Assembly (NCBI GenBank): GCA_038045705.1 | Contig: JBBSXO010000001.1 | Span: 32,001-96,000 of the forward strand | Length of the DNA: 64,000 nt | Reading direction: 5' to 3' | DNA from: Nanobdellota archaeon | GTDB lineage: Archaea > Nanobdellota > Nanobdellia > Pacearchaeales > GW2011-AR1 | Shown here: piece by piece, positions 12,313 through 34,467 of the stretch | Layout of the letters: every line of letters begins with the position of its first letter | How positions within the stretch are numbered: the stretch's first letter is position 1 | Position numbers and translations under genes: made by a program | The notes under the pieces: model-generated | Told to the model about the DNA's origin: nothing | What the model saw: the letters and a program-made list of their open reading frames with translations, nothing else | The model's database searches: none

Positions 12313-13374
12313 ATGCAAGATGGTAAAAAAGTAGCTTTAATAACTGGAATTGGTGGTCAAGACGGATCTTACCTTGCAGAACTCCTTCTTGAGAAAGGAT
12401 ATTTAGTTAGGGGAATTGTAAGAAGAGCAAGCCATCCAAATACTAAAAGGATAGACCATTTATTGAACCAATATCCAGATGACAATGATAAAAATAATCC
12501 TTTCATCTTGGCTTATGCAGATCTAACTGATTCACAAAGCCTTAGAAATGTTTTGGAACGATTCAGACCTGATGAAGTTTACAATCTTGCAGCGCAAAGC
12601 CATGTAGGCATAAGTTTTGATAATGCAGAATCAACAATTAATATCAATCTACTTGGCCCTCTTAGATTACTTGAAGCAATACGTCAAATGAGTTATCCTG
12701 TAAAATACTATCAAGCCTCTTCTTCAGAAATGTTTGGAGCAACACCCCCTCCTCAAAGTGAATCTACCCCATTCAAACCTCAAAGTCCATATGGCATAGC
12801 TAAAGTAGGTGCTTTTCATATAACTAGATTGTACAGAGATGCTTACAAATTATTCGCTGCAAATGGCATCCTCTTCAATCACGAATCTCCAAGGAGGGGT
12901 TTGAATTTTGTAACTAAAAAGATAACTGGAGATGTAGTAAAAATTGTTAATGGAGAAAAGAATGAGATAGTCTTAGGAAACTTAGATGCAAAAAGAGATT
13001 GGGGATTCTCTAAAGAATATGTTGAAGCAATGTGGAAAATATTACAACACAATGAACCAGATGATTTTGTAATTGCTACAGAAGAAACTCATACAGTAAG
13101 AGAATTCATTGAAGAATGTTTTAATTTATTAGGGACAGATTATAGAAAGTTTATTAGGACAAGCGATCGTTATTTACGTCCGGCAGAAGTACCTGCATTA
13201 CTTGGAGATTCTACTAAAGCAAAAAATGTCTTAAAATGGGAACCAAAGACTAAGTTTAAGGAGTTGGTTAAAATAATGCTAGAACATGATTTTAGAGAAA
13301 AAGACATGACTCTAGAGCAGGCCAGAGAGAAAATGAAATTATTAAGCCAACAAAAAGATGAACCAAAGAATTAA
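12313..13374 (+). CDS. gmd: GDP-mannose 4,6-dehydratase
   Basis: ALITGIGGQDGSYLAELLL, YNLAAQSHV, YQASSSEMFG, SPYGIAK, GILFNHESPRRG, LGNLDAKRDWG. Confidence 0.97.
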   Translation: MQDGKKVALITGIGGQDGSYLAELLLEKGYLVRGIVRRASHPNTKRIDHLLNQYPDDNDKNNPFILAYADLTDSQSLRNVLERFRPDEVYNLAAQSHVGISFDNAESTININLLGPLRLLEAIRQMSYPVKYYQASSSEMFGATPPPQSESTPFKPQSPYGIAKVGAFHITRLYRDAYKLFAANGILFNHESPRRGLNFVTKKITGDVVKIVNGEKNEIVLGNLDAKRDWGFSKEYVEAMWKILQHNEPDDFVIATEETHTVREFIEECFNLLGTDYRKFIRTSDRYLRPAEVPALLGDSTKAKNVLKWEPKTKFKELVKIMLEHDFREKDMTLEQAREKMKLLSQQKDEPKN

Positions 13375-14464
13375 CTGGAATGAGCCAAGATTTGATCAAG
13401 AAGATATAGATAATGTAACAGAAGTTTTAAGAAACAACTACGTTAATGAAGGTCCAAAAACAAAAGAACTTGAAGAAACCTTACAAAAATATTTAGGGGT
13501 CAAACATATAATTATGACCTCTAATTGCACAGCTTCTCTTTTTATGGCTATAAAGGCAGATGCTATCATTAAAAAGATAATAGACTTTGAGGTTATCGTT
13601 CCAGATATGACTATGATTGCTTCAGCGACAGCAGTTGGATGGGCAGGTGGAAAGGTCGTATTAGTAGAAGTTGAAAAAGATACTGGTTTAATCAGTTTAG
13701 AAGACCTAAGGAGTAAAATAACTAATAAAACAATTGCATTAATCTCAGTAGACATTCTTGGTAGATCTCCAGATTACAAAGAGTTAAAAAAAATTGCCAA
13801 TGAAAAGAATCTTTCTATAATCGAAGATGCTGCAGGAGCGCTTTCTTCAAAATATGATAAAAAATATTTAGGAACATTCGGAAAAGTGGGTTGCTATTCA
13901 TTACAGTCCAATAAAATAATTACTTGCGGACAGGGAGGGTTTGTTTCAACAGACGATGATGAATATTATGAGGTAATGAGAAGGATAAGAGATTTTGGAA
14001 GATTTAGTAATAAAGAGTTTATTCATGAAAAAGAAGGATACAACCTTAAATTTAGCGATTTAGCTGCTGCCTTGACATTGAGTCAATTGAATAAAATAAA
14101 TTCTCGTAAAAATTTGCTCATTGAGCAAAGAAAATTATATGAAAAAGAATTAGGTGGAATAAAAGAAATCCAATTTCCAAAATTCAATTTAGCTAGTGGA
14201 GAAGTTCCTTTATGGATAGAGATTCTCGTATCCAATAGGGAGGGCTTAGTAGCACACTTAAAATCGAATAATATTTTTGCAAGAGATTGCTGGCCTGCAG
14301 TACATAGAAACCCCCCCTATAGCCACCTTGGAAATGACGAGAAATTTCCAAATGCATCTTACCTGGCAGATCATTCTCTGTGGTTACCAAATGGACCCCA
14401 TTTAACTGAAAATGATATAATTTATATTTGTGGAAAAGTCAAGGATTTTTATGGCAACTCTTAA
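13358..14464 (+). CDS. DegT/DnrJ sugar aminotransferase, probable GDP-perosamine synthase
   Basis: EDAAGA, SLQSNKIITCGQGG (PLP lysine), GYNLKFSD; overlaps gmd. Confidence 0.85.
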   Translation: MNQRINWNEPRFDQEDIDNVTEVLRNNYVNEGPKTKELEETLQKYLGVKHIIMTSNCTASLFMAIKADAIIKKIIDFEVIVPDMTMIASATAVGWAGGKVVLVEVEKDTGLISLEDLRSKITNKTIALISVDILGRSPDYKELKKIANEKNLSIIEDAAGALSSKYDKKYLGTFGKVGCYSLQSNKIITCGQGGFVSTDDDEYYEVMRRIRDFGRFSNKEFIHEKEGYNLKFSDLAAALTLSQLNKINSRKNLLIEQRKLYEKELGGIKEIQFPKFNLASGEVPLWIEILVSNREGLVAHLKSNNIFARDCWPAVHRNPPYSHLGNDEKFPNASYLADHSLWLPNGPHLTENDIIYICGKVKDFYGNS

Positions 14465-15278
14465 AAAAATTATTCTTGCAGGCAGGGGAACGTTAGCAAC
14501 AAAAGTTCTAGATCACTTAATAGAATCTGGAATAAATGATTTGGTTGTTATTCCAGCAACATGTTTAACCAAAGATTCAACACAAAAAAATCTGAAACAA
14601 GAGGCTGAAAAAAGAGGTATAAAAGTTTATAATGGTAATGCAAGTGATTACCAAAAAGATGTAGATTTAGCTTTTTCAATAGGTTATAACTTAAGATTTA
14701 GGGAAGATTTTCTTAGAAAATGTTCAGGCATTAATCTACACCTATCTCCTCTCCCGAGGTATGGAGGGTTTAATCCATTTTATTGGGCAATTAGAAGTGG
14801 GGATACGGAGTATGGAGTCACATTACATGAAATGGGTTTGGAATTTGACGTAGGTAATATAATTTCTCAAAAAAGATTTTCTATACTCCCAAGTGACAAT
14901 GCAAGAGACCTTTTTGATAGGGCAGGAGATGAAGCATTAATTATGTTTAAAGAAATATTCCCTTCGATTTTAAGCGGAACATATGCGAGCATCCCTCAAG
15001 ATCTTACTAAAAAAACTTATTACCAAAAAGATGCAGTTGACTTCAAAGAAACAATTCCTCTTGAGGGTAGTACAAAAGAACTGCATAATCGAATAAGAGC
15101 CACAATATTTCCCCCTTTACCTAATCCTAAAATTTACCTTTTAGATAGAATTTATTCTGTGGAGTCATCACTACCTCATTATGGGGTAAAAATTGATGGT
15201 TCTAAGATAATTGAAGAAGATAGGGTTTTAGTTGCAACAACTGACAGCAGTGTAGAATTAAAGGTTAAAAAAGCTTAA
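14451..15278 (+). CDS. sugar N-formyltransferase (10-formyl-THF dependent)
   Basis: INLHLSPLPRYGG, GVTLHEM..EFDVGNI formyltransferase motifs; likely start ATG 14451; directly follows the aminotransferase. Confidence 0.82.
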   Translation: MATLKKIILAGRGTLATKVLDHLIESGINDLVVIPATCLTKDSTQKNLKQEAEKRGIKVYNGNASDYQKDVDLAFSIGYNLRFREDFLRKCSGINLHLSPLPRYGGFNPFYWAIRSGDTEYGVTLHEMGLEFDVGNIISQKRFSILPSDNARDLFDRAGDEALIMFKEIFPSILSGTYASIPQDLTKKTYYQKDAVDFKETIPLEGSTKELHNRIRATIFPPLPNPKIYLLDRIYSVESSLPHYGVKIDGSKIIEEDRVLVATTDSSVELKVKKA

Positions 15279-18295: not shown

Positions 18296-19156
18296 ATGCC
18301 AATTTTAAAATCAAAGCCATTTAATGAAAAATATCCACTGGTTTCTTCAATAATTCCAGCATATAAGGAGGAAGAAAACATTGTAGCATGCATAGACGCT
18401 CTGCTTAAACAATCTTACTCAAATATGGAAATAATCGTTGTTGAGAACGGAGAATCAAATGATCGAACATATGAAATAGCCAAGTCTTATGAAAAGAAGA
18501 CTAAAGGAAAAGTTAAAGCCTTTACAATTCCAGGAAAACAAAGAGGACCAGGAAATGCTTTAATCTATGGTTTCAAAAAAACCAGAGGCAAGGTAATCTC
18601 TCTAGTAGGAGCAGATTTAGTATATGGAAAAGATTATATCTCAAAAGGAATTATTCCAATATTAAAAGGAGAAACTGTAGGAGTAAACCATAAAGAAGAA
18701 GTTTGTAAAAATCTTAATAATTTGTGGGCAAGAGCATTTTTCTATAAAAGATCTTTTATCCAGTCCAGTGGTTTAAGTAAGGTTTTCACAATTATTCGCA
18801 AAGATTATCTAAAAGATCATTTGTGGGACCCCTCGCTAGGATATGCAGATGATCAGACAATCTATAGAAAATATGGGATAGAATTTAAAGGACTAGACTT
18901 AGAAATCTATCAAAATAATCCTTCATCATTTAAAGAGATATGGGAACACGCTTCATGGGTAGGAAAATCTATGAAAATTAATCCTTTATTAGTTATATTA
19001 AGTTTTCCACTATTTCCATTATATGCTCTGTACAAAACAATTAGACATTTAGCCAAAGACGACTTTTACATTCCATTTATAATATTTCTTCCAATCTATT
19101 ATTCTGTTAGGTATATAGCTTATTTTAAAGAGTCGTTAAAGAAGCTCCTTACATGA
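18296..19156 (+). CDS. GT2 glycosyltransferase
   Basis: VSSIIPAYKEE, IIVVENGESND, GAD. Confidence 0.85.
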   Translation: MPILKSKPFNEKYPLVSSIIPAYKEEENIVACIDALLKQSYSNMEIIVVENGESNDRTYEIAKSYEKKTKGKVKAFTIPGKQRGPGNALIYGFKKTRGKVISLVGADLVYGKDYISKGIIPILKGETVGVNHKEEVCKNLNNLWARAFFYKRSFIQSSGLSKVFTIIRKDYLKDHLWDPSLGYADDQTIYRKYGIEFKGLDLEIYQNNPSSFKEIWEHASWVGKSMKINPLLVILSFPLFPLYALYKTIRHLAKDDFYIPFIIFLPIYYSVRYIAYFKESLKKLLT

Positions 19157-20226
19157 TTAATAACATAATTTGTTTCTTCATCAGTCATTCCAGGAAATAT
19201 TGGTAGTGAAATGATCGTATCTGCATAATTTTCAGATTTTGGAAAGTCTCCTTTTTTATATCCTAAATATTCAAATGCTTTTTGGAGGTGTATTGGAACA
19301 GGGTAATGCAGTCCAGAATCTATGTTTTTTTCTTTTAGATAATTCATTAAAGCATCTCTTTTATCTGTCCTTATTACAAATAAATGGTAAATATGATCTC
19401 TATCTTTGCTAATTTGAGGTAGCTCTACTAGACCATTGAGGGATAAAATATAATTTTCAGCAACTTTCTTTCTTTCTGCATTCCATCTATCTAAATGTTT
19501 TAATTTTATTATAAGTATGCTTGCCTGTATCGTATCCAGTCTTGAATTTAAGCCAGCTATATCATGATAATATTTTTTAGATTGCCCGTAATTTCTAATC
19601 ATTTTCATTTTTTGGGATAGGCTAGAATCGTTTGTCGTGATAAATCCCCCATCACCAAAAGCGCCAAGATTCTTTCCAGGATAAAAAGAAAAAGCAGCAG
19701 CATGACCAAGACTGCCAGCTCTTTTGTTTTTATATATTGAACCATGAGCTTGACAGGCATCTTCAATAACATATAAGTTGTATTTTTTTGCAATACTCAT
19801 TATTTCATCCATATCACATGCCTGCCCATATAAGTGAACAGGCATAATTGCTTTAGTTTTACTTGTTATTTTTTGTTCTATAAGAGAGGAGTCAATTGTA
19901 AAGTCTTCTTTTGCGTCTATGAGTATAGGTATTGCCCCAACAGAAACAATAGAAGCAGCGGTAGCGTTGAAAGTGTTTGCAACAGTTATTACTTCATCTC
20001 CTTTGCCAATGTTCATCGCGCGCATAATAATTTCTAGTGCCTGTAATCCATTAGCTACACTTATTCCGTGTTCAGCTTGGCAGTAATCTGCAAATTCTTT
20101 CTCAAATTTTTCAACAGCCACACCTAAAATAAAATCATTTTTTGTTAGATGCTCATCCAGTTTTTCAATAATCTCTTTATGAAGTGGTTGATGAATCCTA
20201 TTTAAGTCTAAAAATGGTACTTTCAT
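19120..20226 (-). CDS. DegT/DnrJ/EryC1 sugar aminotransferase (WbpE/FdtB-like)
   Basis: PVHLYGQ, EDACQAHG, SFYPGKNLGAFGDGG, NSRLDTIQA, HYPVPIHLQ. Confidence 0.92.
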   Translation of the reverse strand: MKVPFLDLNRIHQPLHKEIIEKLDEHLTKNDFILGVAVEKFEKEFADYCQAEHGISVANGLQALEIIMRAMNIGKGDEVITVANTFNATAASIVSVGAIPILIDAKEDFTIDSSLIEQKITSKTKAIMPVHLYGQACDMDEIMSIAKKYNLYVIEDACQAHGSIYKNKRAGSLGHAAAFSFYPGKNLGAFGDGGFITTNDSSLSQKMKMIRNYGQSKKYYHDIAGLNSRLDTIQASILIIKLKHLDRWNAERKKVAENYILSLNGLVELPQISKDRDHIYHLFVIRTDKRDALMNYLKEKNIDSGLHYPVPIHLQKAFEYLGYKKGDFPKSENYADTIISLPIFPGMTDEETNYVINHVRSFFNDSLK

Positions 20227-21230
20227 AACTTTACTTCTGCGCCCCCCAGGCTTTTAGATTTTTCCGCTGCTTCTAATATTTTTACAACTTCCATCCCTTC
20301 ATTTCCATCACTCATACATTTTTCCACACCATTAACACATTTAAGAAAATGATCAAATTGCGTAATAAGAGGTTGAGATAAATTTAGTTTGGGAATAAGA
20401 ATATCTCCTTCTCTAGTTCCAGCTTGAAATTCAGAGAAATTATTTGGATTAGGTAAGTATTCAATAGATCTATCATAAATTGTTAACTTTTCAGAAGGAT
20501 GAATATCATCAAAAACAATGGCTTTTTTTGTGCCTCCTATGACTAATTTCCTTTCTTTAATGGGATGGATCCAATTAGCATAGGCTGTGGCAATAACTTT
20601 TCCAGGAAATCTCATATTAACAGAAACAATATCATCAACTCCATTAAGATAACTTTCCCCAGTATAACTAACGCTTAAAGGTTTTGAACCAGTTAGATAC
20701 ATAAAAATGTAAACTTCATGAGATATCAAATCCCACAAAGCACTTGCATCTTGTCTAACCGGACCCAAGGCAACACGCCTTGCGTCAAGATATTTTATTT
20801 GACCTATCTCTCCAGAGTCTATTCTTCTCTTAACTTCTCTAAGAGCAGAGTTGTACTTGAATATATGTCCAACCATCAAAATTTTTCCTTTTTCTTTAGC
20901 CAATTTAATAAGCTTTTCAGAATCTTCTAATTTAAGGGTCAGAGGTTTTTCTATCAAAACATTTTTTCCAGCCATAAGAGCCTGTAAAGCAATATCAAAA
21001 TGAGATTTAGTAGGTGTAGCAATTATAACTGCTTCAACTTCAGGATCAGACAAAACTACAGAAATATCTTGAGTGAAAGTTACTTCTTTTTGAAGATTTT
21101 TACTTGGCTTTTTTATGTCATTGATATATTTAAGTTGAGCATTTCCAAAAGAACCCTCATGGCCGAATAAATTAAGATAATTTTTACCCCAATAGCCACA
21201 GCCAATAAGAGCAAGATTTAGTTTTTGCAT
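20223..21230 (-). CDS. Gfo/Idh/MocA NAD-dependent sugar oxidoreductase (WbpB/WlbA-like)
   Basis: LIGCGYWG, IATPTKSH, LIEKPL, MVGHIFKY, LWDLISHE. Confidence 0.88.
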   Translation of the reverse strand: MQKLNLALIGCGYWGKNYLNLFGHEGSFGNAQLKYINDIKKPSKNLQKEVTFTQDISVVLSDPEVEAVIIATPTKSHFDIALQALMAGKNVLIEKPLTLKLEDSEKLIKLAKEKGKILMVGHIFKYNSALREVKRRIDSGEIGQIKYLDARRVALGPVRQDASALWDLISHEVYIFMYLTGSKPLSVSYTGESYLNGVDDIVSVNMRFPGKVIATAYANWIHPIKERKLVIGGTKKAIVFDDIHPSEKLTIYDRSIEYLPNPNNFSEFQAGTREGDILIPKLNLSQPLITQFDHFLKCVNGVEKCMSDGNEGMEVVKILEAAEKSKSLGGAEVKL

Positions 21231-21276: not shown

Positions 21277-22308
21277 CTATGTTCTTCTATTGACTATTTT
21301 ATCTATATCTTCAATAGTGGGGTTGCAAGGGTTTGTTTTTGTACATATATCCATTCTGATTTTTTCATAATCTGCTGAATATACAGAAGATAAATCCAAT
21401 TCTAAACTATTTAGGAATTTCTCAAAAACCTCTATAAAATTAGATTCATTAACATTTTTGCAAGAATTTAGTTTAGAGTATACATTGCTATTCTTTTTGT
21501 TGAGTCTTAGGACGTCAAGCAAGTATAGGGATACAGCTCTGCCATGAGTTAAGCCATGTTTTGGCCCTATATTATGAGCAATTCCATGAATGAGCCCTAC
21601 TGAAGCTGTACTTTGAACAATTCCAGCTATAAACCCTGCAGCTTGTAATTTAGATAATGCTTCAATATCTTTAGACTGATATGCTACTTTTCCATTTTCT
21701 AAAATTGTGTCTATAGATTTTGTAGCTAATATATCATTTAAATTATTTGAGTTTCTTGAAGCAAGACCTTCAATAGAATGAGCTAACGCATCAACAATTG
21801 AAAAAGCAAGTACTTTATTATTAGCAGTTGCACAAAAAGCAGGATTAAATATTACTGTCTCAGGCAATAGTTGGTTGGAAGCAAACACTTTCTTATTTTT
21901 ATTTTCATCAAGAAGAACAGCATATTGGCTTGCTTCAGAACCACTTCCTATAGTGGTTGGGATAAGGATACATTCTAAATTTTCACCCATCTTTACAATT
22001 TTAGTTAAGTCCATTACAGATCCACCACCAATTCCAAGAATTATTTCTGATTTATTCTTTTTTAGTTGATTCTGTACATCTTCTTTATCTTTTAGAGTTG
22101 GTTCATTATTAAGCATAAAAAAACTCAACTCTGACCCAGTTAGAACTAATTTTATCTTTTCTTCATTTTTTTCGTAAAATGTCTTAGAAATAATTATGAA
22201 TATCTTTTTATTTAATGATTTTAAAAACCTCTCTCCAGATTTTGCATCCATAACCATATTTGGAAAGAAAGACTTAGGTAAGAGGCTTAGAATTTTAGAT
22301 TCAATCAT
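21277..22308 (-). CDS. iron-containing alcohol dehydrogenase
   Basis: GIGGGSVMDLTK, IPTTIGSGSEAS, DALAHSIEG, HGIAH...HG iron ligands. Confidence 0.88.
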   Translation of the reverse strand: MIESKILSLLPKSFFPNMVMDAKSGERFLKSLNKKIFIIISKTFYEKNEEKIKLVLTGSELSFFMLNNEPTLKDKEDVQNQLKKNKSEIILGIGGGSVMDLTKIVKMGENLECILIPTTIGSGSEASQYAVLLDENKNKKVFASNQLLPETVIFNPAFCATANNKVLAFSIVDALAHSIEGLASRNSNNLNDILATKSIDTILENGKVAYQSKDIEALSKLQAAGFIAGIVQSTASVGLIHGIAHNIGPKHGLTHGRAVSLYLLDVLRLNKKNSNVYSKLNSCKNVNESNFIEVFEKFLNSLELDLSSVYSADYEKIRMDICTKTNPCNPTIEDIDKIVNRRT

Positions 22309-23729
22309 TTTCTTAACATACTCCTTTTTATTTTACCAGAGTCTGTTTTAGGTAGATCTTTAACAATAATTATTTTTTTCGGCATTTTATATGACTCTAT
22401 CTTACCATTTAAAGACTTAATTATTTCTTCTATCGATTTATTAGGTGAAACTACATATAAGTGAACTACTTCTCCAAATAAATTATCCTTTGCTCCGACG
22501 GCAGCTACATCTTGAGCAATCCCTAGACTCTTTATTATTCCTTCAATTTCTTCAGGGTAAACCTTTTCTCCATTTACATTGATTATATCATCAACTCTTC
22601 CAGTAATATGTATATATCCTTTATCATCAAAATATCCGCTGTCTCCAGTATAAAGCCATCCATCTTTTATTTTTTTAGATGCTTCTTCATCATTCCAGTA
22701 CTGACTTATAACGTGTTTTCCATTTATACATATTTCTCCATTTCTCACTTCTATTTTTGTATTTGGACTTGCTTTTCCTACAGATCCAATTCCTTCTTTT
22801 TCTCTTCTAAAATTAATGAATGATGAGCGTGAAGCTTCTGTAAGACCATAATAGTAATATAAGTTGGTTTTATTGAGGTCGTCTAAAATAGAATTAACAA
22901 GTTCTTTAGATATAGGTCCGGTGTTTGTAATTATTCCTTTGAGTTTTATAGCTTTTTTTCTAAAATAATCTTTATGTTCATTTACAAGCATGTTTAAAGT
23001 TGCAGGGGTTGCAGCTAAAATTGTTGCATTGTTTTCAAGCATATTATCTAATACCCTCTTTAAATTAATGAAATTTCTTTCTAATATGAATTTTCCTCCA
23101 GCAAATATTGAAGAATGGAGGTTTCCTAACCCAAAAGAGTGAGATAAAGGCAATCCGCTTATGAATATATCGGAAGAATCATTTTTTATGAACTCTTTTA
23201 TATTTTCTGTAGCCCGTACAACGTTTTTGTGCTGTAAAAGAACACCTTTTGATTTTGAAGTAGTTCCAGATGTGTAAATAATACTGCATGCATCTTCTGA
23301 AAATACCTCTCTTGTCTTATTCTCTTCTGATATATAATTTTTTGCAGATTTTTTTAATAATATAGTATGTTTCTGCGCATTAATTCTTTTCATTTTTTCA
23401 TCTAGTTTATCTTCATATATTAGGAAAGATGGTTGACAGTCTTTTATTTCAAAGAGTAAGTTATCATCAGATATATTTGTAGGAAACAATACTGCAATGC
23501 ATCCAGCTTTCAGTATACCAAAGTAAGCTATGATAAATTCAATTGAGTTATCAAGTAATATTCCTATTCTTTCTCCTTTTTTACACTTGCTACAAAAATA
23601 ATTCCTTATTTTATCAGATTCATCATTCAGATGACTGTAGCTTATTTTTTCGAGCTCAAAAATTACAGCAGTCTTTTCAGGATTTTTTTTTGAAGAATTT
23701 TCTAAGAAAGAATTAATGGTTTTTTCCAT
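22305..23729 (-). CDS. AMP-dependent acyl-CoA/acyl-ACP ligase (ANL superfamily)
   Basis: IIYTSGTTSKSKG, PLSHSFG, YGLTEA, TGD, GRVDDIINVNGEKVYP, PKTDSGKI. Confidence 0.92.
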   Translation of the reverse strand: MEKTINSFLENSSKKNPEKTAVIFELEKISYSHLNDESDKIRNYFCSKCKKGERIGILLDNSIEFIIAYFGILKAGCIAVLFPTNISDDNLLFEIKDCQPSFLIYEDKLDEKMKRINAQKHTILLKKSAKNYISEENKTREVFSEDACSIIYTSGTTSKSKGVLLQHKNVVRATENIKEFIKNDSSDIFISGLPLSHSFGLGNLHSSIFAGGKFILERNFINLKRVLDNMLENNATILAATPATLNMLVNEHKDYFRKKAIKLKGIITNTGPISKELVNSILDDLNKTNLYYYYGLTEASRSSFINFRREKEGIGSVGKASPNTKIEVRNGEICINGKHVISQYWNDEEASKKIKDGWLYTGDSGYFDDKGYIHITGRVDDIINVNGEKVYPEEIEGIIKSLGIAQDVAAVGAKDNLFGEVVHLYVVSPNKSIEEIIKSLNGKIESYKMPKKIIIVKDLPKTDSGKIKRSMLRK

Positions 23730-23937
23730 TTTTAGAAGAAATTATTCTTAAGATGTCTTGTGCAGATTCTATTGAAACAACCTCATCAACAGTCAAAGCT
23801 ACGCCAAATCTACTTTCTACTTCAGAAACTAACTCCATATGAGCAAAAGAATCCCATCTTTCATATTCTTGTTGCTTCTTTATCGAGTCATAGCTACCAA
23901 GAACTTTGATAAATATTCCTTTTAGTTTTTCTTCCAT
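23713..23937 (-). CDS. acyl carrier protein
   Basis: 74 aa, acidic; WDSFAHMELVSEVESRFGV with the phosphopantetheine Ser (DSL-like DSF). Confidence 0.85.
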   Translation of the reverse strand: MEEKLKGIFIKVLGSYDSIKKQQEYERWDSFAHMELVSEVESRFGVALTVDEVVSIESAQDILRIISSKNGKNH

Positions 23938-24281
23938 TTTTCCTCCAAAATCGCAAAAGCAACAGCCATTGTTTTTGCATGGGTAATACTTAAGTGAACC
24001 CTATACTTCTTATTTAAATCTTTTTCTACGAATAAAATCGATGGTATTGTTCCATCTTTTATTACTTCTATTTCATTAAACATTAAATTAATTCCTGTAT
24101 TTGCTAGTGCTTTTTTTACTGCTTCTTTTGCACAGAACCTTGCCGCAAATCTTTCTTTAGGATTTGAAGATTCAAGGCAATATTCTATTTCTTTTTGAGT
24201 AAATAGTTTTTTAGCAAGGTCTTTTTTTAAGTGAGAAAATCTATTTACATTTTCACAGTCAACACCAATTCCAACAATCAT
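23922..24281 (-). CDS. acpS: holo-ACP synthase (AcpS-type phosphopantetheinyl transferase)
   Basis: IVGIGVD, FTQKE, AARFCAKEAVKKAL, HLSITH. Confidence 0.92.
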   Translation of the reverse strand: MIVGIGVDCENVNRFSHLKKDLAKKLFTQKEIEYCLESSNPKERFAARFCAKEAVKKALANTGINLMFNEIEVIKDGTIPSILFVEKDLNKKYRVHLSITHAKTMAVAFAILEEKWKKN

Positions 24282-24922
24282 TTTAATTCACTCTCCTTTA
24301 GGTTTCTTACTTTTCTTAACGGGTTTCCTACATAAATCCCCTGAGAGGTTACCGGTTTAGAAATAACAGAACCTGCTCCAATTATTATATTATCTCCAAT
24401 TGTTATTCCGGGTAGGATTGATGAATTTTCTCCTATTGCAGAATTACTTCCAATAGTTATTTTATCCAGTATGTTTGCAGGCAGTCTAAGCATGTACTTA
24501 TCTAAAGCCATAGAAACATGAGGTCCAATAAAAGTGTTTTCTCCTATAGTAGTCTTTTCTCCTATAAGAGCTCCTGCTTGAATGCGTACGCCTTTACTAA
24601 GAATGACATCAAATTCAACAATAGCATTTTTTCCAACTCTTACTTTCTCTCCTAAAACACATCCTTCTCTTACAATAGCTGCATCAGAAACAATGACTTC
24701 TTTTCCTATTGTAGTACCTGCATAAATTATAGCATTTGTACCTATCAAAGATCCTTCCCCTATAGTTACTGGTCCTCTTTCCTGAAGTTTCAATGTGGAG
24801 CTTGCAAGAGTTTTAGGTTGTTTACCTATTACCGCACCATCTTGTATAATAACATTATCTTCAATAATTGTACCTGGGTAAATTACAACGTTTTGTCCTA
24901 TTGAAATATTTTTTCCTTTCAT
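24278..24922 (-). CDS. hexapeptide-repeat (left-handed beta-helix) N-acyltransferase, WbpD/WbeO-like
   Basis: Many [IV]G hexads, GAVIGKQP, IGAGSVI, GNP; likely start 24922 (ATGA overlap with luxC-like stop); ORF extends to 24940. Confidence 0.85.
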   Translation of the reverse strand: MKGKNISIGQNVVIYPGTIIEDNVIIQDGAVIGKQPKTLASSTLKLQERGPVTIGEGSLIGTNAIIYAGTTIGKEVIVSDAAIVREGCVLGEKVRVGKNAIVEFDVILSKGVRIQAGALIGEKTTIGENTFIGPHVSMALDKYMLRLPANILDKITIGSNSAIGENSSILPGITIGDNIIIGAGSVISKPVTSQGIYVGNPLRKVRNLKESELK

Positions 24923-26082
24923 TTCCATGTTACAATCCACCTTACCATTCTATCTATGGCAAACATACCATCCCAAGGAGAGCCAAATAATGTCATTTCA
25001 CCAACTTTCGGACATCTATCTGCACCAAACATAGTTAAATTATCAACAAAGTCTTCTCTTGAATTATTTTTCATAGCTAGTCCAACTGTTTGCTGATGTC
25101 TGGTATTTAATCCTTTCAGATTTAAATCTTTAAGAGGTTTGACAAAAGCAACTCTAGAAAAGCATGGTTGAGCTAGACCAATTTCTTCAGAATAAATTAC
25201 AGTCCAATCAGTGTTCTCTGAAGAAAAAACTTGTCCTTTTATTATTCCTTCTGCTCTAGCAGATAAAATTTCCATCTTTTTACCAGGTTCAGTATGTCCT
25301 TTAGGGATCATTAGTCTGTTGACTTTATCCAGTTCCTGAGCAAGAAGTTTAGCAAAATCAAGAGCTCTTTCTTCAACAAAAATTGTATGCGGGGAAGAAC
25401 AGGCAGTTTGGTCAAATGTAGAAATATCAAATGCAAGCTTTCTTGCAGAATCAGAATTGGCATTTTCTTTATCAACGACAGCATAGGAATATTTTGGCCC
25501 ATAAACTATATCTTCACAAAATATATTTTTTTTATAGTTGGTAATAGCCTCAATAGCTTCATATCCTCCCCAAGCTATTCTTATATCAGCTGCTTTAGAC
25601 ATTTCTTCATTTTTTTCCTTGTCTTTACTATCTACTAGAACAAGAGCAAACGTTTTAGAGAATTCTTTCCCGTTAATCTTGTTTGTGTTGACTGCAGAAA
25701 AGTTATCCAGTAATTTCTTTAATCCTTGATAAGAAGATGAAGATGTTCTGACTAATGAAACATTCTTTGTAATCATTGCTTGTATTATAGAATAGATTCC
25801 GAGATTCTCTACATTTCCAGCAACCCAGTGAACTGCTAGACCTCTTGGTTGTGCATGATATAGTCTGCCATCTTTAAGAGTCATAAATTCATCCAAAACT
25901 CTATAGTTGCCACGTAACGCAATATCCATCATTAATTTAAGATTATCTTTTGATATAAATTTCTTTATTTCTTTTATACCTATTTTTTCACCAACTTTTT
26001 CTAAATATTCAAGTAAATCATCTGTTTTAATGCTATGAGCATATTCTCTTGCATTTCTTAACGATTCTATAACTTCTTTCAT
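24919..26082 (-). CDS. acyl-CoA/acyl-protein reductase (LuxC-like)
   Basis: PRGLAVHWVAGNV, IAWGG, YGPKYS, FDQTACSSP (catalytic Cys), WDGMF; likely start 26082. Confidence 0.88.
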   Translation of the reverse strand: MKEVIESLRNAREYAHSIKTDDLLEYLEKVGEKIGIKEIKKFISKDNLKLMMDIALRGNYRVLDEFMTLKDGRLYHAQPRGLAVHWVAGNVENLGIYSIIQAMITKNVSLVRTSSSSYQGLKKLLDNFSAVNTNKINGKEFSKTFALVLVDSKDKEKNEEMSKAADIRIAWGGYEAIEAITNYKKNIFCEDIVYGPKYSYAVVDKENANSDSARKLAFDISTFDQTACSSPHTIFVEERALDFAKLLAQELDKVNRLMIPKGHTEPGKKMEILSARAEGIIKGQVFSSENTDWTVIYSEEIGLAQPCFSRVAFVKPLKDLNLKGLNTRHQQTVGLAMKNNSREDFVDNLTMFGADRCPKVGEMTLFGSPWDGMFAIDRMVRWIVTWK

Positions 26083-27128
26083 CTCAATGTATCTCCACAA
26101 CCCTTAAGTTCAGCATCTTTTGCTCTTTCCTTAAAAATAAAATATTTACCCTTTCTTCCACAATGGCAATCATCTTCTCCAATAATTTTACCTATATCTT
26201 CTGTGAGAAGAGATATACCAGGGTAACTATGTGGGACAGGACTTATTAACTGAATAAATCCTTCTTGCGATGGTTTTAGATTATCTATATTCCTCATTAA
26301 AATTTCAGAATATAATGGTATATGTTTGTATCCTTCTTCACAATCAATGTAAATTGTCCCAAGCTGTTCAGTCATTCCATACATATCATATATATTAGAT
26401 GTGCCAATATTATTTTTTATTTTCTTGTTGAACTCTTCTTTACTGACCATCATATCAGTGAGTTTTTTCCAACCACCTATATGTAAGACTTTGCTATTCT
26501 TTAATTTAATAGGGTTTAATTGTAACAATGTTTTATATAAAAGCCAAGTAAAACCAAAGAAACATACTTCTTGGTCATTTATTTTTTCTATAGTTTCATT
26601 AAGTTTTTCAGCATCAAGATTTAGTTCATTATCTAAAACAAAATTAATTGATTTTGCAAATGGCATTAACCCTCTTATCGCAGAGCCTCGTGAAGATATT
26701 TCCCCTTCTTTTGAAGTGATAGTTCTTTCTGTATCAAATATTATAAAATTTAATCTTTTGTTTCCTATAAATGAAGAAAGTATAGAATTTAGACATTTTA
26801 TTTGTCTTTTGCGTGTAACCTCATCGATATAGATTGTGCTTGGTATTCCAGTAGTAATTGCGCTTGATTTTATCACAGATACAATTTGGTCATCAGGTAC
26901 GGAAGTCAATTTCATTTTTTTGAATAAACTAATAGGTAAGTAAGGAATCAATTCAATGTTTTGAGGAAATTTATCTTGTCCAGAATTGTCAATTATTTTC
27001 TTAAATTCTACTGAATTTGAGTAATGAAAATCAATAGCTTCTTTCATTGCAGCAAGAAACAGTTTATATTTTTCATTTTTACCAATATCAAAAGGTTTAT
27101 TCTCAAGTAAAGAATCTATAGGGTTCAT
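26079..27128 (-). CDS. acyl-protein synthetase (LuxE-like)
   Basis: IPYLPISLFK, SSAITTG, HIGGWKK, DMYGMTEQ, SYPGISLLTED, GCGD C-terminal Cys. Confidence 0.88.
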   Translation of the reverse strand: MNPIDSLLENKPFDIGKNEKYKLFLAAMKEAIDFHYSNSVEFKKIIDNSGQDKFPQNIELIPYLPISLFKKMKLTSVPDDQIVSVIKSSAITTGIPSTIYIDEVTRKRQIKCLNSILSSFIGNKRLNFIIFDTERTITSKEGEISSRGSAIRGLMPFAKSINFVLDNELNLDAEKLNETIEKINDQEVCFFGFTWLLYKTLLQLNPIKLKNSKVLHIGGWKKLTDMMVSKEEFNKKIKNNIGTSNIYDMYGMTEQLGTIYIDCEEGYKHIPLYSEILMRNIDNLKPSQEGFIQLISPVPHSYPGISLLTEDIGKIIGEDDCHCGRKGKYFIFKERAKDAELKGCGDTLR

Positions 27129-27224
27129 TATAATCTGGACAGATTTAACTAAAAATACCAGCGAAGCAAGTAATTTTAAATGTATCTATGGTTGCTTTTA
27201 AATAAACCCTATATTTCTAATTAT

Positions 27225-28383: not shown

Positions 28384-29859
28384 ATGGCAGAAACAAAAAG
28401 TATCTTTCAAAATAAATTAAACTTAATCTTAGTTGGTATAATCTTATTTGGAACAATAATTAGATTTTACTTTTTTAATTTAGTAAAAAACCAAGCTCAC
28501 TGGTGGGATTCACTTGCATATGGAAGTCTTGCAAAAAATATGATATATCATAGATGGGATAATCTACCATTTATTATGCATGAGGCAGTTATACGTCCTC
28601 CTCTTCTTCCAGTTGTTTGGAGTTGGTTAATAAGTCTTGGAGCTTCAGATTATGCAGTAATTATCTTAACAAATATAATCCCTTCAATAATTTCAATATA
28701 TTTAATATATTTAATTGGAAAAGAGATGTATAATAAAAAAGTTGGTTTGGTTGCAGCTATTTTTGCATCAATATCTTGGATTCACTTGTTTTATTCAATA
28801 AGAATAATGACGGATATTCCATCAATGTGTTTAGTTTTAGCAAGTATTTACTTCTTCGTTAAATCTTATGAATCTCTTAATCTTAAGAATTGGTTATTTT
28901 CGGTGCTTCTTTTATCTTTAGCAGTACTCTTCAGATATTCTCATGCAGTTATGGCAGTCGCTTATATTATATTCTTAATTTTTGTTCACAAGACAAGCTT
29001 GTTTAAAAGTAAGAAATTTTGGATAGGTGGAATAATAGGAGCAATTCCATTAATTTTATTTATTTTAATAAACTTATTTGCATATGGCTCGCTTTTGCCA
29101 GCAACTTCAGAATATACTTCAAGTGCTAGCGAAAAAACAAGTTTTGGTTGGTATACAATTGGTTTCATTAATTATATATTGATGAGCCCAGCAGTCTTTT
29201 TATTTTATTTTGGGATTTTGCTAGCTCTTTTCAAAGTTGGGATGAGTTATGGATTTATTTCAAAACACAAAGAATTAAGGATGCATCTCTTAAATCTGAT
29301 TTTGCTTATTTTTGTTCTTTCATTCTTTATATTTGGAATAAAAGCTTCAGAAGATAGATATTTACTTGGGATTTCTAGCGTACTATTTATTATGCCCGCA
29401 GTGGCACTCCTCTATTTATATAAAATTATCTCGAAATATAAGAAAGAGATAGGCGTTGCTGTTTGTATTGCCTTAATTGCTTGGTCGATTTATGCTCAAA
29501 TTTCATTTGCCAATGGTCTTATTCTTGATAAAAAAGAATCTTATAAAGAGATGAAAGAAGCCTATGAATGGATAAAATATAATACTCCTGAAGAGGCAAT
29601 AATAGTAGGTGATTGGGGAGAGCCTTATGCAATATACTACGCAGATAGGGATGTGCAAATTTGGCCAGAAGACTTAGACTTCTCCAATTTTACATTAGAA
29701 GCAGATTATGTGATTTTAACCGCAGTTCATCAACCAAATGAAAAAGTGGTAAGTTATGTCAACGATTTAGCAGAAAATGAGATTGTTATTCCAATAAAAG
29801 TATTTTTCTTTGATTCTGCACAAACTCAACCTGCAGTAATAATTTACAAAAAGTTATAA
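28384..29859 (+). CDS. GT-C fold glycosyltransferase (ArnT/PMT_2-like)
   Basis: IRF...WWDSLAY, RPPLLP, IMTDIP, LFRY, EDRYLL; multi-TM. Confidence 0.82.
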   Translation: MAETKSIFQNKLNLILVGIILFGTIIRFYFFNLVKNQAHWWDSLAYGSLAKNMIYHRWDNLPFIMHEAVIRPPLLPVVWSWLISLGASDYAVIILTNIIPSIISIYLIYLIGKEMYNKKVGLVAAIFASISWIHLFYSIRIMTDIPSMCLVLASIYFFVKSYESLNLKNWLFSVLLLSLAVLFRYSHAVMAVAYIIFLIFVHKTSLFKSKKFWIGGIIGAIPLILFILINLFAYGSLLPATSEYTSSASEKTSFGWYTIGFINYILMSPAVFLFYFGILLALFKVGMSYGFISKHKELRMHLLNLILLIFVLSFFIFGIKASEDRYLLGISSVLFIMPAVALLYLYKIISKYKKEIGVAVCIALIAWSIYAQISFANGLILDKKESYKEMKEAYEWIKYNTPEEAIIVGDWGEPYAIYYADRDVQIWPEDLDFSNFTLEADYVILTAVHQPNEKVVSYVNDLAENEIVIPIKVFFFDSAQTQPAVIIYKKL

Positions 29860-32465: not shown

Positions 32466-33259
32466 TATTCTATCAAAGAATGATTTAGTTTTAATATTCT
32501 TGGTAGTTTATCATAAACTCTTACAATAAATCCAAATGGGGAGTAAATAAGTCTTAATCTTAAAGTTCCGGAAAACATCTTTATTGAAGCTCTTATTGTA
32601 TCAACTGTTGTATTTCCATCATCAGCCCATGCAGTTGGAAATTCTAGTATTCTAAGACCATTTAGTTTACAAAGATATAATATATTTATATCAAATGCCC
32701 ACTGAGTTATGAATATTTTATTTACTATTTTTTTCAACTCATTAACCTTAAACAGCTTTGCCCCACACTGGGTGTCGTTGTATTTCATAAAAAACATTAT
32801 TCTTACCATAAAATTATATATTCTGCTAGCAAATCTTCTAATGATGTTTTGTTTTTTATCTATCTTAGATTCAATGGACCATCTATTCCCAATTATGCCA
32901 GAGTAACCGTCAATATTGTTTACTAAATCATAAAATGCATCTGGTGAAGTCGCTAAATCTGAATCTACAAAACCAGCCATATCAAATTTTTTTGATATGA
33001 AATACTTGAATCCTTCAGTAACTGCATAACCCTTACCACCTTTCTTAAGGCTAATATAAGCTACATTATTTGGTTTTTTAATAAAATTTTTAACAATTTC
33101 TTCGGTTTTATCTTTTGTGTTATTTATTACGACTAATATTGAATATTGGTTCTTTTCTACCTTGCTTTTTTTCAAGAAATAAGGAGAATATTCTTCAAGT
33201 TTTCTTTGGATTCTCTTCTCTTCATTATAAGCTGGGATAACTATTCCTATCTTCTTCAT
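32465..33259 (-). CDS. dolichyl-phosphate glycosyltransferase (Alg5/AglJ-like GT2)
   Basis: IVIPAYNEE, GKGYAV, FVDSDLAT, IGNR, DTQCGAKLF, WAFDINIL. Confidence 0.85.
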   Translation of the reverse strand: MKKIGIVIPAYNEEKRIQRKLEEYSPYFLKKSKVEKNQYSILVVINNTKDKTEEIVKNFIKKPNNVAYISLKKGGKGYAVTEGFKYFISKKFDMAGFVDSDLATSPDAFYDLVNNIDGYSGIIGNRWSIESKIDKKQNIIRRFASRIYNFMVRIMFFMKYNDTQCGAKLFKVNELKKIVNKIFITQWAFDINILYLCKLNGLRILEFPTAWADDGNTTVDTIRASIKMFSGTLRLRLIYSPFGFIVRVYDKLPRILKLNHSLIE

Positions 33260-34467
33260 TTTCTAAGTAAGGCTAAAGAGCCTATAAAAAAGATTACATT
33301 TGAGATAAAAAATCCAAAAGAGTAATATATCAAGTTACCAGACAATAAATATAAGATTATTATTTCCACAAAAAGACCAATAGATAACCATTGATAACCA
33401 TTTGTCATACCCCTCGATAGTTTATAATACAGTATCGTACTTGATAATGATAACATCATAGTGCCTAATGACAATAATTTTGTAGGTATATTTGCTTCAG
33501 GGATATATCTTCCAGACAGTAAATAAATTATTAGATCAGTGAAAAAGGTTATTATTAAAATAGCTACAAAACATATTGAAATAACTATTCCAATAGCTAG
33601 TTTAAAATTACGATTTGAGGATTTATTTTGATTAAATTCAACTACTGAAATCGGAAAGAGTACTTTGTTTATAGGTTGAACTGCTATGAATATTATAAGA
33701 GCTATTGTTGAAGCTATAGCATAGATTCCTGCCTCGAAGTCTCCAAAGATATTTCCTGCAATTAAAACATCTACATTAATAAATAAAATTAGCATAGAAG
33801 TAATTAAAAAAACTGGTTTACTATAAGATCTTATGCCATCTAGTTGTGCAGTTTCTATTTTACTTGATAGAACATCTTTAAGATAAAATAATGAAAGCAC
33901 AAAAGAAAGTATGATACTTATAACGACACCCCATACAGCTCCTAGAACTCCTAAGCCAAAATAAACCAACAAAAATGATGCTCCTATCTTTAAGATAGCC
34001 TCTCCAAGCATAGAAAAACCTAGTGCAAAAAATCTCTGTTGTCCTTGTAAAATTCCCCTGGCAATCGGTACAAACATAGAAAATAGGATAAATATGGAAG
34101 TAGCAAATAAAAGTGAATATGCTATATTAAATACTGGAGAAATTATTAAAGAGATTAATAAAAAAACTATCAAAACTATAATTGAAGGAAATATAATTTC
34201 TCTGTTACTTCTTAAAAAAATGTTTTTAAGCTTTCCATCATTTTTACGAAAATTAGATGAATATTTTACAACTACTGTCTGAACAGATTCCATAAATATT
34301 GCACCTATATATAAAAAAGCAAAAACTCTTTTTAACATTCCAAAATCTTCTACAGGCATAATTCTAACCATTAGTAAATGATATACAAAATTCAAAACAT
34401 TAAATATTCCTACGAGAGACAATAAAACTAAACTCCCTCTAACAAGTTTACTTTTAAAATCGATCAT
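33256..34467 (-). CDS. oligosaccharide flippase (MOP family)
   Basis: NFVYHLLMVR, RGILQG, GLGVLGA, DVLIA, AGIYAIAS; about 12 TM; ATGA-coupled to aglB. Confidence 0.82.
   Translation of the reverse strand: MIDFKSKLVRGSLVLLSLVGIFNVLNFVYHLLMVRIMPVEDFGMLKRVFAFLYIGAIFMESVQTVVVKYSSNFRKNDGKLKNIFLRSNREIIFPSIIVLIVFLLISLIISPVFNIAYSLLFATSIFILFSMFVPIARGILQGQQRFFALGFSMLGEAILKIGASFLLVYFGLGVLGAVWGVVISIILSFVLSLFYLKDVLSSKIETAQLDGIRSYSKPVFLITSMLILFINVDVLIAGNIFGDFEAGIYAIASTIALIIFIAVQPINKVLFPISVVEFNQNKSSNRNFKLAIGIVISICFVAILIITFFTDLIIYLLSGRYIPEANIPTKLLSLGTMMLSLSSTILYYKLSRGMTNGYQWLSIGLFVEIIILYLLSGNLIYYSFGFFISNVIFFIGSLALLRK

Follow-up and report, generated by a model that had tools for sequence, protein, structure and literature searches.

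A nine-gene operon in the glycosylation island of a Pacearchaeota-like archaeon is predicted to build an acyl group on a carrier protein for N-acylation of a 3-amino sugar

We analyzed a 64,000-nucleotide (nt) stretch of the genome of a Nanobdellota archaeon (assembly GCA_038045705.1, contig JBBSXO010000001.1, positions 32,001 to 96,000), referred to here as the window, by a Pfam profile search of the translations of its open reading frames (ORFs) with the family cut-offs applied. The subject of this work is an operon on the minus strand, given here in window coordinates. It opens with a gene for a LuxE-like acyl-protein synthetase (26079-27128; 349 amino acids [aa]; PF04443, E-value 5e-60, 203.8 bits against a cut-off of 24.9), followed by genes for a LuxC-like acyl-thioester reductase (24919-26100; PF05893, 8e-80, 269.1 bits against 21), a QdtC-like hexapeptide N-acyltransferase with a left-handed beta-helix (LbH; 24278-24940; PF00132, 1e-30), an AcpS-type 4'-phosphopantetheinyl transferase (23922-24281; 119 aa; PF01648, 2e-16, 60.3 bits against 25), an acyl carrier protein (ACP; 23713-23937; 74 aa; a marginal match to PF00550, 1.8e-4, 22.1 bits against 20.8), an adenylating ligase of the ANL superfamily (22305-23729; 474 aa; PF00501, 6e-63, 213.4 bits against 29.9), and an iron-type alcohol dehydrogenase (Fe-ADH; 21277-22308; 343 aa; PF00465, 3e-24, 86.2 bits against 31.3; PF25137, 5e-24, 85.5 bits against 27). 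A first-pass annotation of this DNA had described these seven minus-strand ORFs at 21277-27128, with overlapping starts and stops, as the whole operon. Its coordinates were exact and the Pfam search bore out its domain assignments; its boundary was too narrow. On the same strand, the gene for a GFO/IDH/MocA oxidoreductase (GFO protein; 20223-21230; 335 aa; PF01408, 3e-25) begins 46 nt past the Fe-ADH gene, and the gene for a QdtB-like, pyridoxal phosphate-dependent aminotransferase of the DegT family (19120-20226; 368 aa; PF01041, 1e-119) overlaps the GFO gene by 4 nt. The true unit is nine genes, and the order of all nine is identical in a Pacearchaeota metagenome-assembled genome (MAG; loci L007/L008, where L numbers denote the related loci of this study).

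The coupling of the genes is tight. The overlaps amount to 4 nt for LbH/AcpS, 16 nt for AcpS/ACP, 17 nt for ACP/ANL, and 4 nt for ANL/Fe-ADH. At the LuxE/LuxC and LuxC/LbH junctions, the overlaps take the form ATGA, provided that translation really begins at the internal ATGs (26082 and 24922). The LuxC ORF is 393 aa long when read from a TTG, and the database copy is 387 aa, which fits the ATG at 26082; LuxC is therefore probably a 387-aa protein that starts there. Likewise, the LbH ORF extends over 220 aa from a GTG, and the protein is probably 214 aa from the ATG at 24922.

The motifs quoted in the first-pass annotation (FDQTACSSP in LuxC, GCGD in LuxE, DSF (here within WDSF) in ACP, AKEA in AcpS, YTSGTT in the ligase, and the histidines of Fe-ADH) were all located, and they are kept in at least 90% of the orthologs, as measured on sequences from up to 81 related loci. 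FDQTACSSP occupies residues 229 to 237 of LuxC, and its cysteine (Cys234 in the 393-aa numbering, Cys228 when counted from the ATG) is invariant in a 15-sequence alignment and retained in at least 90% of 82 sequences. The GCGD of LuxE lies at residues 343 to 346, includes Cys344, and is kept in at least 90% of 80 sequences. The two proteins belong to the same families as the LuxC-LuxE fatty acid reductase of luminous bacteria (PDB 7XC6), and both thioester cysteines align: LuxC matches 7xc6_A with Cys234 opposite the cysteine of the DQxAC motif, and LuxE matches 7xc6_E with Cys344 opposite chain residue 364. In the available text on the solved complex, Cys364 of LuxE is the thioester-carrying residue and passes the acyl group directly to LuxC (PMC12041015). 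By analogy with 7XC6, the window proteins most likely work through adenylation, self-acylation of LuxE on its C-terminal cysteine, transfer to the LuxC cysteine, and reduction by NADPH.

The window enzymes nevertheless differ from those of luminous bacteria. Their E-values to the 7XC6 chains are only 4.9e-27 (LuxC) and 2.9e-18 (LuxE), and no luxA, luxB, or luxD gene accompanies the cassette. LuxC scored 128.9 bits against the 750-bit cut-off of the long-chain equivalog NF052251, and LuxE scored 73.4 bits against the 550-bit cut-off of the LuxE equivalog NF052244. Judged by scores so far under the cut-offs, the window LuxC and LuxE are not bioluminescence enzymes, and they probably act on a short polar acid instead of myristate. 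A role in bioluminescence or fatty-aldehyde formation was rejected on these scores, on the lack of a luciferase or LuxD match in the Pfam survey of the window, and on the setting among sugar genes. LuxC also stands out in length. The window protein and its two closest relatives are 386 to 388 aa long, and because the other 117 homologs listed (367 to 452 aa) nearly all have at least 405 aa, the window protein appears to belong to a sub-lineage without about 35 N-terminal residues.

The remaining enzymes of the acyl-building part carry the residues that their families would lead one to expect. W28, D29, and S30 of the ACP are invariant in 32 sequences; Ser30, in the WDSF motif, is the predicted site of the phosphopantetheine. 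AcpS passed the model TIGR00556 (69.2 bits against a cut-off of 45.35) and narrowly missed the acpS equivalog-domain model TIGR00516 (57.3 against 59.8 bits); its AKEA motif lies at residues 51 to 54, and D8 and K52/E53 are conserved. Across the genome, a single PP-binding match (the ACP), a single ACPS match (AcpS), and a single AMP-binding match (the ANL ligase) were recorded. With no second match of any of these kinds in the genome, the three proteins appear to be dedicated to the operon, as had been proposed earlier for AcpS.

The ANL ligase holds the core motifs of its superfamily (YTSGTTSKSKG, with YTSGTT at 152; YGLTE; YTGD; GRVDD; and PKTDSGKIKR) and reached the cut-off of no NCBIfam equivalog. 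In a PDB search, its closest solved relatives were the oxalate-, o-succinylbenzoate-, and malonyl-CoA ligases. Such dicarboxylate-activating relatives lend mild support to a dicarboxylate as the predicted substrate of the window enzyme. The segments HSFGLG and YGLTEASRS, which we take to line the acyl pocket in the ANL superfamily, are kept in at least 90% of 72 cassette ligases, those of the Vibrio type included. This conservation hints that the cassette ligases may share one substrate class. Fe-ADH has a GGGS loop at residue 94, and D173, H177, H241, H245, and H255, presumably the metal ligands as in the rest of the family, are present and conserved. We did not find Fe-ADH in, among others, cassettes L013, L015, and L018 (Nitrososphaerota), L023, L036, L057, and L060; cassettes of this kind may retain the aldehyde stage, or another enzyme may take over.

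The earlier annotation had drawn a parallel with the wbeK-wbeO genes (rfbK-rfbO, VC0248-VC0252) of Vibrio cholerae O1, for which a role in making 3-deoxy-L-glycero-tetronate and in N-acylating perosamine has been proposed. A profile of gammaproteobacterial fused LuxE-LuxC proteins led us to the wbe locus in V. cholerae ATCC 14035 (L094), with whose ORFs we compared the window proteins by blastp; the ORF sizes fit the published WbeL (471 aa), wbeM (1,125 nt), and wbeN (2,478 nt). LuxE matched the N-terminal half of WbeN (36% identity, 8e-72) and LuxC its C-terminal half (38%, 1e-75); the ANL ligase matched WbeL (30% over 485 aa, 5e-50), Fe-ADH matched WbeM (29%, 2e-33), and the ACP matched WbeK (43% over 37 aa, 8e-10). 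The hexapeptide transferase matched WbeO at only 33% over 64 aa (3e-6). The parallel therefore stands for the acyl-building part and fails for the transferase, which had been named as the WbeO counterpart and is QdtC-like instead.

Both loci group an ACP, an ANL ligase, an Fe-ADH, LuxE, LuxC, and a hexapeptide transferase within a glycan locus. The commonest order in the cassette family, ACP-ANL-FeADH-LuxE-LuxC-LbH, is the K-L-M-N-O order of V. cholerae, whereas the order in the window (LuxE-LuxC-LbH-AcpS-ACP-ANL-FeADH, then GFO and DegT) is circularly permuted. LuxE and LuxC are fused as WbeN (about 830 aa) in V. cholerae but are encoded by two genes in the window, and the wbe locus has no AcpS, in contrast to the window operon. 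The two sets differ further in their transferase, in their sugar enzymes, which point to a 3-amino sugar here rather than to the 4-amino sugar perosamine, and in the host, which here is an archaeon.

According to the available portions of three papers, the V. cholerae genes are predicted or putative genes for the synthesis of tetronate (2,4-dihydroxybutanoate), deletion of wbeL abolishes the O1 antigen, and mutations in wbeN and wbeM lead to phage resistance (PMC3441752, PMC12208996, PMC9915646). Related gene sets in print, as far as the accessible text goes, are those of V. cholerae O1, Riemerella, and the flagellin islands of Aeromonas group II and Enterobacteriaceae, always as predictions. 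The flagellin islands share the ACP, ANL, LuxE, and LuxC core inside a protein-glycosylation island. As described in that text, they differ from the window in having a short-chain dehydrogenase (a 3-oxoacyl-ACP reductase of the FabG type) where the window has Fe-ADH, pseudaminic-acid genes alongside, no AcpS, and bacterial hosts.

The setting of the operon is a glycosylation island, as the first-pass annotation had stated. A Pfam survey of the window placed GT2 and GT4 glycosyltransferases, two flippases, two GT-C proteins of the PMT_2 type, methyltransferases, and AglB within about 6 to 37 kb; the operon is flanked by GT2, GT4, and PMT_2 genes and a flippase gene and lies 7 kb from STT3/AglB. 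The same window encodes archaeal proteins, among them those of a ribosomal-protein operon (L19e, L32e, S4e, SUI1), prefoldin, aIF-2B, SecY, and a 900-aa STT3/AglB. The GC content of the cluster (0.314) equals that of the window (0.313), and an unbroken run of 20 island genes (15776-37166) keeps its order on a Pacearchaeota contig, at 42 to 88% amino-acid identity. The best-kept cassette proteins relative to the Pacearchaeota orthologs (L008) are LbH (88%) and ACP (85%); AcpS is at 55%, and the other cassette enzymes are at 60 to 70%.

One alternative is that the genes serve a Lux-type lipid or aldehyde pathway unrelated to glycans; others are that the assembly is chimeric here or that the genes are a decaying import. 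Bioluminescence is the setting in which LuxC and LuxE first became known, according to the available text of PMC12041015, and the cassette is rare in the lineage: a LuxE above its cut-off turned up in 3 of the 401 genomes from the phylum to which the window belongs, and in 0 of the 27 from the family. However, sugar genes surround the operon both here and in relatives, the frames are intact, and the catalytic residues are conserved. A chimeric contig had been named earlier as grounds for doubt, and both a chimera and a recent import were rejected, because the GC content equals that of the window, the order of the 20 island genes matches the Pacearchaeota contig, and archaeal genes for ribosomal proteins, prefoldin, aIF-2B, and STT3 lie on the same contig as the operon. 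Taken together, we regard these alternatives as very improbable.

Which sugar the operon serves is indicated by the transferase, the GFO protein, and the aminotransferase. The closest solved relative of the LbH transferase is QdtC (3fs8, 6e-29), followed by 4mzu (1.6e-19), 7s3u (1.7e-17), and WlbB (3mqg, 1e-8); according to the PDB titles, 7s3u is a Helicobacter pullorum enzyme crystallized with a dTDP-3-amino-3,6-dideoxy sugar, and WlbB is a 3-N-acetyltransferase. No match to the PglD-type N-terminal domain was found in the transferase. The top NCBIfam match of the GFO protein is the archaeal UDP-GlcNAc 3-dehydrogenase NF040723 (1.7e-41). The aminotransferase is closest to QdtB (3frk, 1.8e-117), ahead of WbpE (6e-74) and perosamine synthetase (1e-63). 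Because the transferase is QdtC-like and the operon holds 3-dehydrogenase-like and QdtB-like genes, a 3-amino sugar, in the simplest case UDP-GlcNAc3N, is the probable acceptor rather than perosamine.

This arrangement resembles the QdtB/QdtC route to dTDP-Quip3NAc, the WbpB/WbpE/WbpD route, and the archaeal UDP-GlcNAc 3-dehydrogenase routes, all of which run from a 3-keto to a 3-amino sugar and on to N-acylation by a hexapeptide enzyme. It differs from these 3-acetamido-sugar routes in that the window transferase is coupled to an ACP-based acyl-building module, and from the QdtB/QdtC pathway in that the operon holds neither a QdtA-type isomerase nor a dTDP-glucose dehydratase. The three sugar genes also recur with the cassette in other lineages. 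Cassette loci with a GFO homolog (at least 130 bits) include L016 from an Aenigmarchaeote, L018 from a Thaumarchaeote, and L021 and L031 from two Gammaproteobacteria; GFO, LbH, and DegT were all found in L016, L018, and L021, and L031 gave no DegT match. In L018, the order is NTP-transferase-DegT-GFO-AcpS-ACP-ANL-LuxE-LuxC-LbH.

An AlphaFold2 model of the transferase (24278-24922; 12-row alignment; pLDDT 79.9) was set aside for its probable wrong handedness. A Foldseek search of the model gave no match at an E-value of 0.001 or below among 401 rows, the top rows being right-handed beta-helices and pentapeptide proteins. VIA-align ranked LpxD, GlmU, LpxA, and WlbB top by Z (18.7 to 14.5) at a root mean square deviation (rmsd) of about 11.8 A, and right-handed helices superposed on the model at 2.6 to 3.1 A. 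Such a handedness error is a caution for other beta-helix models built from shallow alignments.

The same homologies bear on a different kind of product. The ligase could load a medium- or long-chain fatty acid scavenged from a host onto the ACP, and an LpxA/LpxD-like transferase could then give a lipid-anchored sugar by a route akin to GnnA/GnnB plus Lpx (the GlcN3N lipid A route), with LuxE, LuxC, and Fe-ADH making a fatty alcohol or tailoring the chain. The PDB matches of the GFO protein do include 7bvj (7e-21), which we take to be GnnA. The transferase has weaker NCBIfam matches to LpxD (3e-23) and LpxA, and the top NCBIfam match of the ligase is a "long-chain-fatty-acid--CoA ligase" subfamily (1.6e-90, below its cut-off). 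In addition, the authors who described the flagellin islands of Aeromonas group II and Enterobacteriaceae guessed at a lipid or fatty-acid component for these related sets, in the accessible part of their text. However, in the PDB search the transferase was far nearer to QdtC than to LpxD and LpxA (about 1e-9 to 1e-7), the closest solved relatives of the ligase activate short dicarboxylates, and LuxC and LuxE fall far under the long-chain equivalog cut-offs. With a monocarboxylic acid, moreover, the LuxE/LuxC/Fe-ADH and ANL/ACP lines would compete for one carboxyl, and the literature assigns a C4 hydroxy acid to the homologous V. cholerae set as its proposed product. A lipid-bearing product of this kind is unlikely on this evidence.

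The acceptor proposed in the first-pass annotation was perosamine, and the island does hold a branch of that type. On the plus strand, at 12313-15278, a Gmd that passes its curated cut-off (435.6 against 415 bits) adjoins a DegT protein of the 4-aminotransferase type and then a sugar formyltransferase, which suggests that this branch makes an N-formyl-perosamine-like sugar. The same acyl chemistry could thus be directed at the 4-amino group of a perosamine-type sugar (Gmd/DegT, 12313-14464), or a carboxyacyl group could be transferred first and reduced on the sugar nucleotide. V. cholerae acylates perosamine, according to the available text of PMC3441752. Reduction after transfer would, on chemical grounds, also avoid the lactonization of a gamma-hydroxyacyl thioester. 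Against this, the branch has its own formyltransferase directly downstream and lies on the other strand, whereas the transferase and the aminotransferase linked to the operon match 3-amino-sugar enzymes best, WbeO is barely matched, and GFO, DegT, and LbH genes together accompany the cassette in other lineages. We therefore did not retain perosamine as the acceptor, and we consider this alternative acceptor or order of steps improbable, at about the same level as the lipid-bearing product or slightly above it.

We propose that the product of the nine-gene operon is a 3-amino sugar, N-acylated and destined for a surface glycan of this Pacearchaeota-like archaeon of the DPANN group, and we assign this reading a probability of roughly 0.62. 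A GFO-type dehydrogenase would oxidize C3 of a nucleotide sugar, most likely UDP-GlcNAc, and the QdtB-like aminotransferase would convert the 3-keto sugar to a 3-amino sugar. LuxE would adenylate one carboxyl of a small, malate-like dicarboxylic acid and hold the thioester on Cys344; LuxC would receive the acyl group on Cys234 and reduce it to the aldehyde with NAD(P)H; and Fe-ADH would reduce the aldehyde to the alcohol, so that an omega-hydroxy acid (for example, 2,4-dihydroxybutyrate or 4-hydroxybutyrate) results. We place these three enzymes on one line from carboxyl to alcohol because LuxE and LuxC are often fused and LuxE hands the thioester to LuxC in the complex. Since LuxE is tied to LuxC, the ANL ligase, ACP, and AcpS are left as a second activation line: AcpS would prime the ACP from scavenged CoA, and the ligase would adenylate the remaining carboxyl and load it onto the phosphopantetheine at Ser30 of the dedicated ACP. 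Because both lines would act on one molecule, the substrate would need two carboxyls, as in the conversion of malate to 2,4-dihydroxybutyrate. The QdtC-like transferase would then pass the ACP-bound acyl group on to the 3-amino group, and the neighboring glycosyltransferases, flippase, and GT-C/AglB proteins would build the sugar into a cell-surface glycan. The content, order, and coupling of the genes, their catalytic residues, homologies, and conserved synteny, and the sugar setting are observed; all substrates, the sequence of reduction and ACP loading, the acyl-ACP as donor for the transferase, and the final glycan are predicted.

Several observations weigh against this proposal. The transferase fell under the cut-off of the NeuD/PglB/VioB model TIGR03570 (100.7 against 160.8 bits), and QdtC-type enzymes use acetyl-CoA, so that the use of an acyl-ACP by the transferase is a step that we infer. 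The GFO protein scored 142.7 bits against the 450-bit cut-off of NF040723 and is not a member of that family; its sugar substrate is put forward for a protein that lies outside the characterized equivalog. The identities of 29 to 43% to the Wbe proteins are too low to fix substrates, and the function of the V. cholerae genes themselves rests on sequence-based proposals and mutants, not enzymology, in the available portions of PMC3441752, PMC12208996, and PMC9915646. Fe-ADH was not detected in 28 of 80 related loci, including all three from Nitrososphaerota, and the alcohol step is thus not universal. A gamma-hydroxyacyl thioester could lactonize, and reduction might therefore come after transfer to the sugar; the perosamine-type branch, 4 to 5 kb away on the opposite strand, could in principle supply the acceptor.

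The pathway would also depend on imports. The genome (844 kb, 10 contigs, 91.5% complete) gave no match to DFP (CoaBC), DUF359 (archaeal dephospho-CoA kinase), CTP_transf_like (PPAT), or NTP_transferase, all of which scored in the control genomes, and at this completeness the misses do not prove absence. These data suggest an external source for both CoA and the starting nucleotide sugars. The module had been called self-sufficient; this is overstated for a genome with no markers of CoA synthesis and no sugar nucleotidyltransferase found.

Two features of the window operon, the split LuxE/LuxC pair and the co-located acpS, had been singled out in the first-pass annotation, and both belong to a wider group rather than to this genome alone. 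LuxC has 348 database relatives at an E-value of 0.001 or below among 3,825 candidates, and its nearest named relatives are archaeal (Pacearchaeota, 70% identity; Nanoarchaeota, Nitrosopumilaceae, Aenigmarchaeota, Woesearchaeota, and Micrarchaeota, 47 to 53%). A profile scan of species-representative genomes gave 158 relatives, the best 80 of which were taken for locus work; cultured carriers of the cassette include Marinomonas polaris DSM 16579 and isolates of Winogradskyella, Maribacter, and Formosa. In these 80 loci, phmmer searches with the window proteins, which may miss short or divergent proteins, found the ligase in 74, Fe-ADH in 52, the ACP in 48, and AcpS in 14. We then built a LuxC tree by a quick method from 82 rows (the window, the 80 loci, and L002). 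The window LuxC groups with the Pacearchaeota copy (SH-aLRT 100) within a clade of 17 rows (SH-aLRT 100) that interleaves DPANN archaea, three Nitrososphaerota, three members of the Candidate Phyla Radiation (CPR), and three Gammaproteobacteria. Of these 17 rows, 16 have a separate ORF for LuxE and for LuxC, the contig of the remaining one (L010) ending inside LuxC, and AcpS is co-located in 15, one of the two exceptions being cut at a contig end. By phmmer, AcpS went undetected in all 65 rows outside the clade. About half of the 81 rows other than the window have LuxE and LuxC as a single polypeptide, and fused forms occur in V. cholerae, Vibrio fortis, Bacteroidota, and Bacillota loci.

Because the domains mix within this clade, the cassette appears to have been transferred repeatedly, in a direction that an unrooted tree does not reveal. 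The family as a whole spans many phyla, and the cassette is sporadic in another archaeal lineage too: in the family of the Nitrosopumilus genome, LuxE was found in 1 of 201 genomes, the query genome itself. The link between cassette and sugar genes is upheld elsewhere. All 9 archaeal loci examined, in which 88 flanking ORFs were scanned, carry at least one sugar-pathway, sugar-modifying, or LbH gene beside the cassette, although in L012 this is only LbH and in L010 only DegT.

The distribution of AcpS invites a broader, more tentative reading. It is a reasonable inference that bacteria with fatty-acid synthesis prime the cassette ACP with their housekeeping AcpS, that archaea and CPR bacteria must carry AcpS with the cassette, and that an ACP primed once needs far less CoA than a pool of free CoA thioesters. 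The AcpS-bearing clade could accordingly be an inter-domain mobile kit for glycan acylation, with which ultra-small DPANN, Nitrososphaerota, and CPR that are CoA auxotrophs or lack a fatty-acid synthase decorate their coats with a hydroxy-acyl 3-amino sugar on trace amounts of scavenged CoA; we hold this possible, at somewhat less than even odds.

Further features of these loci were recorded alongside the operon. Between luxE and a divergent gene for a GT4 glycosyltransferase lies an A+T-rich intergenic region of 51 nt (27129-27179), which, from its position, is probably the site of putative promoters for both divergent units. The island encodes two PMT_2-type GT-C proteins (7678-9480 and 28384-29859), one STT3/AglB (34464-37166), and two Wzx-like flippases (9525-11072 and 33256-34467), and it may encode more than one glycan or glycosylation route. 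Right-handed beta-helix proteins of about 610 aa are encoded at 39330-41156 and, on the minus strand, at 57235-59094; these are possible surface proteins and candidate glycan carriers. Genes for B12-binding radical SAM enzymes flank the cassette in a Nanoarchaeote (L009:133-1599 and L009:9985-11487) and in Nitrosopumilus (L013:12072-13508), and these enzymes may tailor the acyl group or the sugar further. On an Aenigmarchaeota contig, an IS605 OrfB/Cas12f-like TnpB gene lies about 5 kb from the cassette (L014:13169-14368).

The first-pass annotation knew of no archaeal description of such a pathway, and our search agrees: in the open-access literature (searched for LuxC/LuxE in archaea, ACP glycosylation in DPANN, and acyl-protein synthetase in O-antigen synthesis), no archaeal version of the cassette was found, and the papers on related O-antigen gene sets are, by title and abstract, all bacterial. 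The Wbe-type acyl-building core is already known. What sets the window operon apart from it is the split LuxE/LuxC, the dedicated AcpS, the permuted order, and the 3-amino-sugar branch, placed in an archaeal glycosylation island. The chemistry of the cassette has been a proposal only, since that made for V. cholerae in 1995, despite its occurrence across many phyla, and the compact archaeal version, with its small split proteins and its own AcpS, would be a convenient set for in vitro reconstitution of the pathway.

According to the available text of PMC3533463, most archaea lack ACP and the enzyme that primes it, neither of which is ancestral to the archaea; in this archaeon, the ACP/AcpS pair appears to exist only to serve a sugar-decoration operon. 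If our proposal is true, archaeal surface glycans can bear acyl groups built on a carrier protein, which have so far been proposed only for bacterial O-antigens and flagellins. If the mobile-kit reading is true as well, the glycosylation of archaeal proteins or cell surfaces would gain its first pathway that depends on a carrier protein. The finding also bears on what DPANN archaea need from their hosts, such as CoA and nucleotide sugars, as opposed to the coat that they make themselves: this cell may depend on a host for both compounds while keeping an elaborate sugar-tailoring island of its own.

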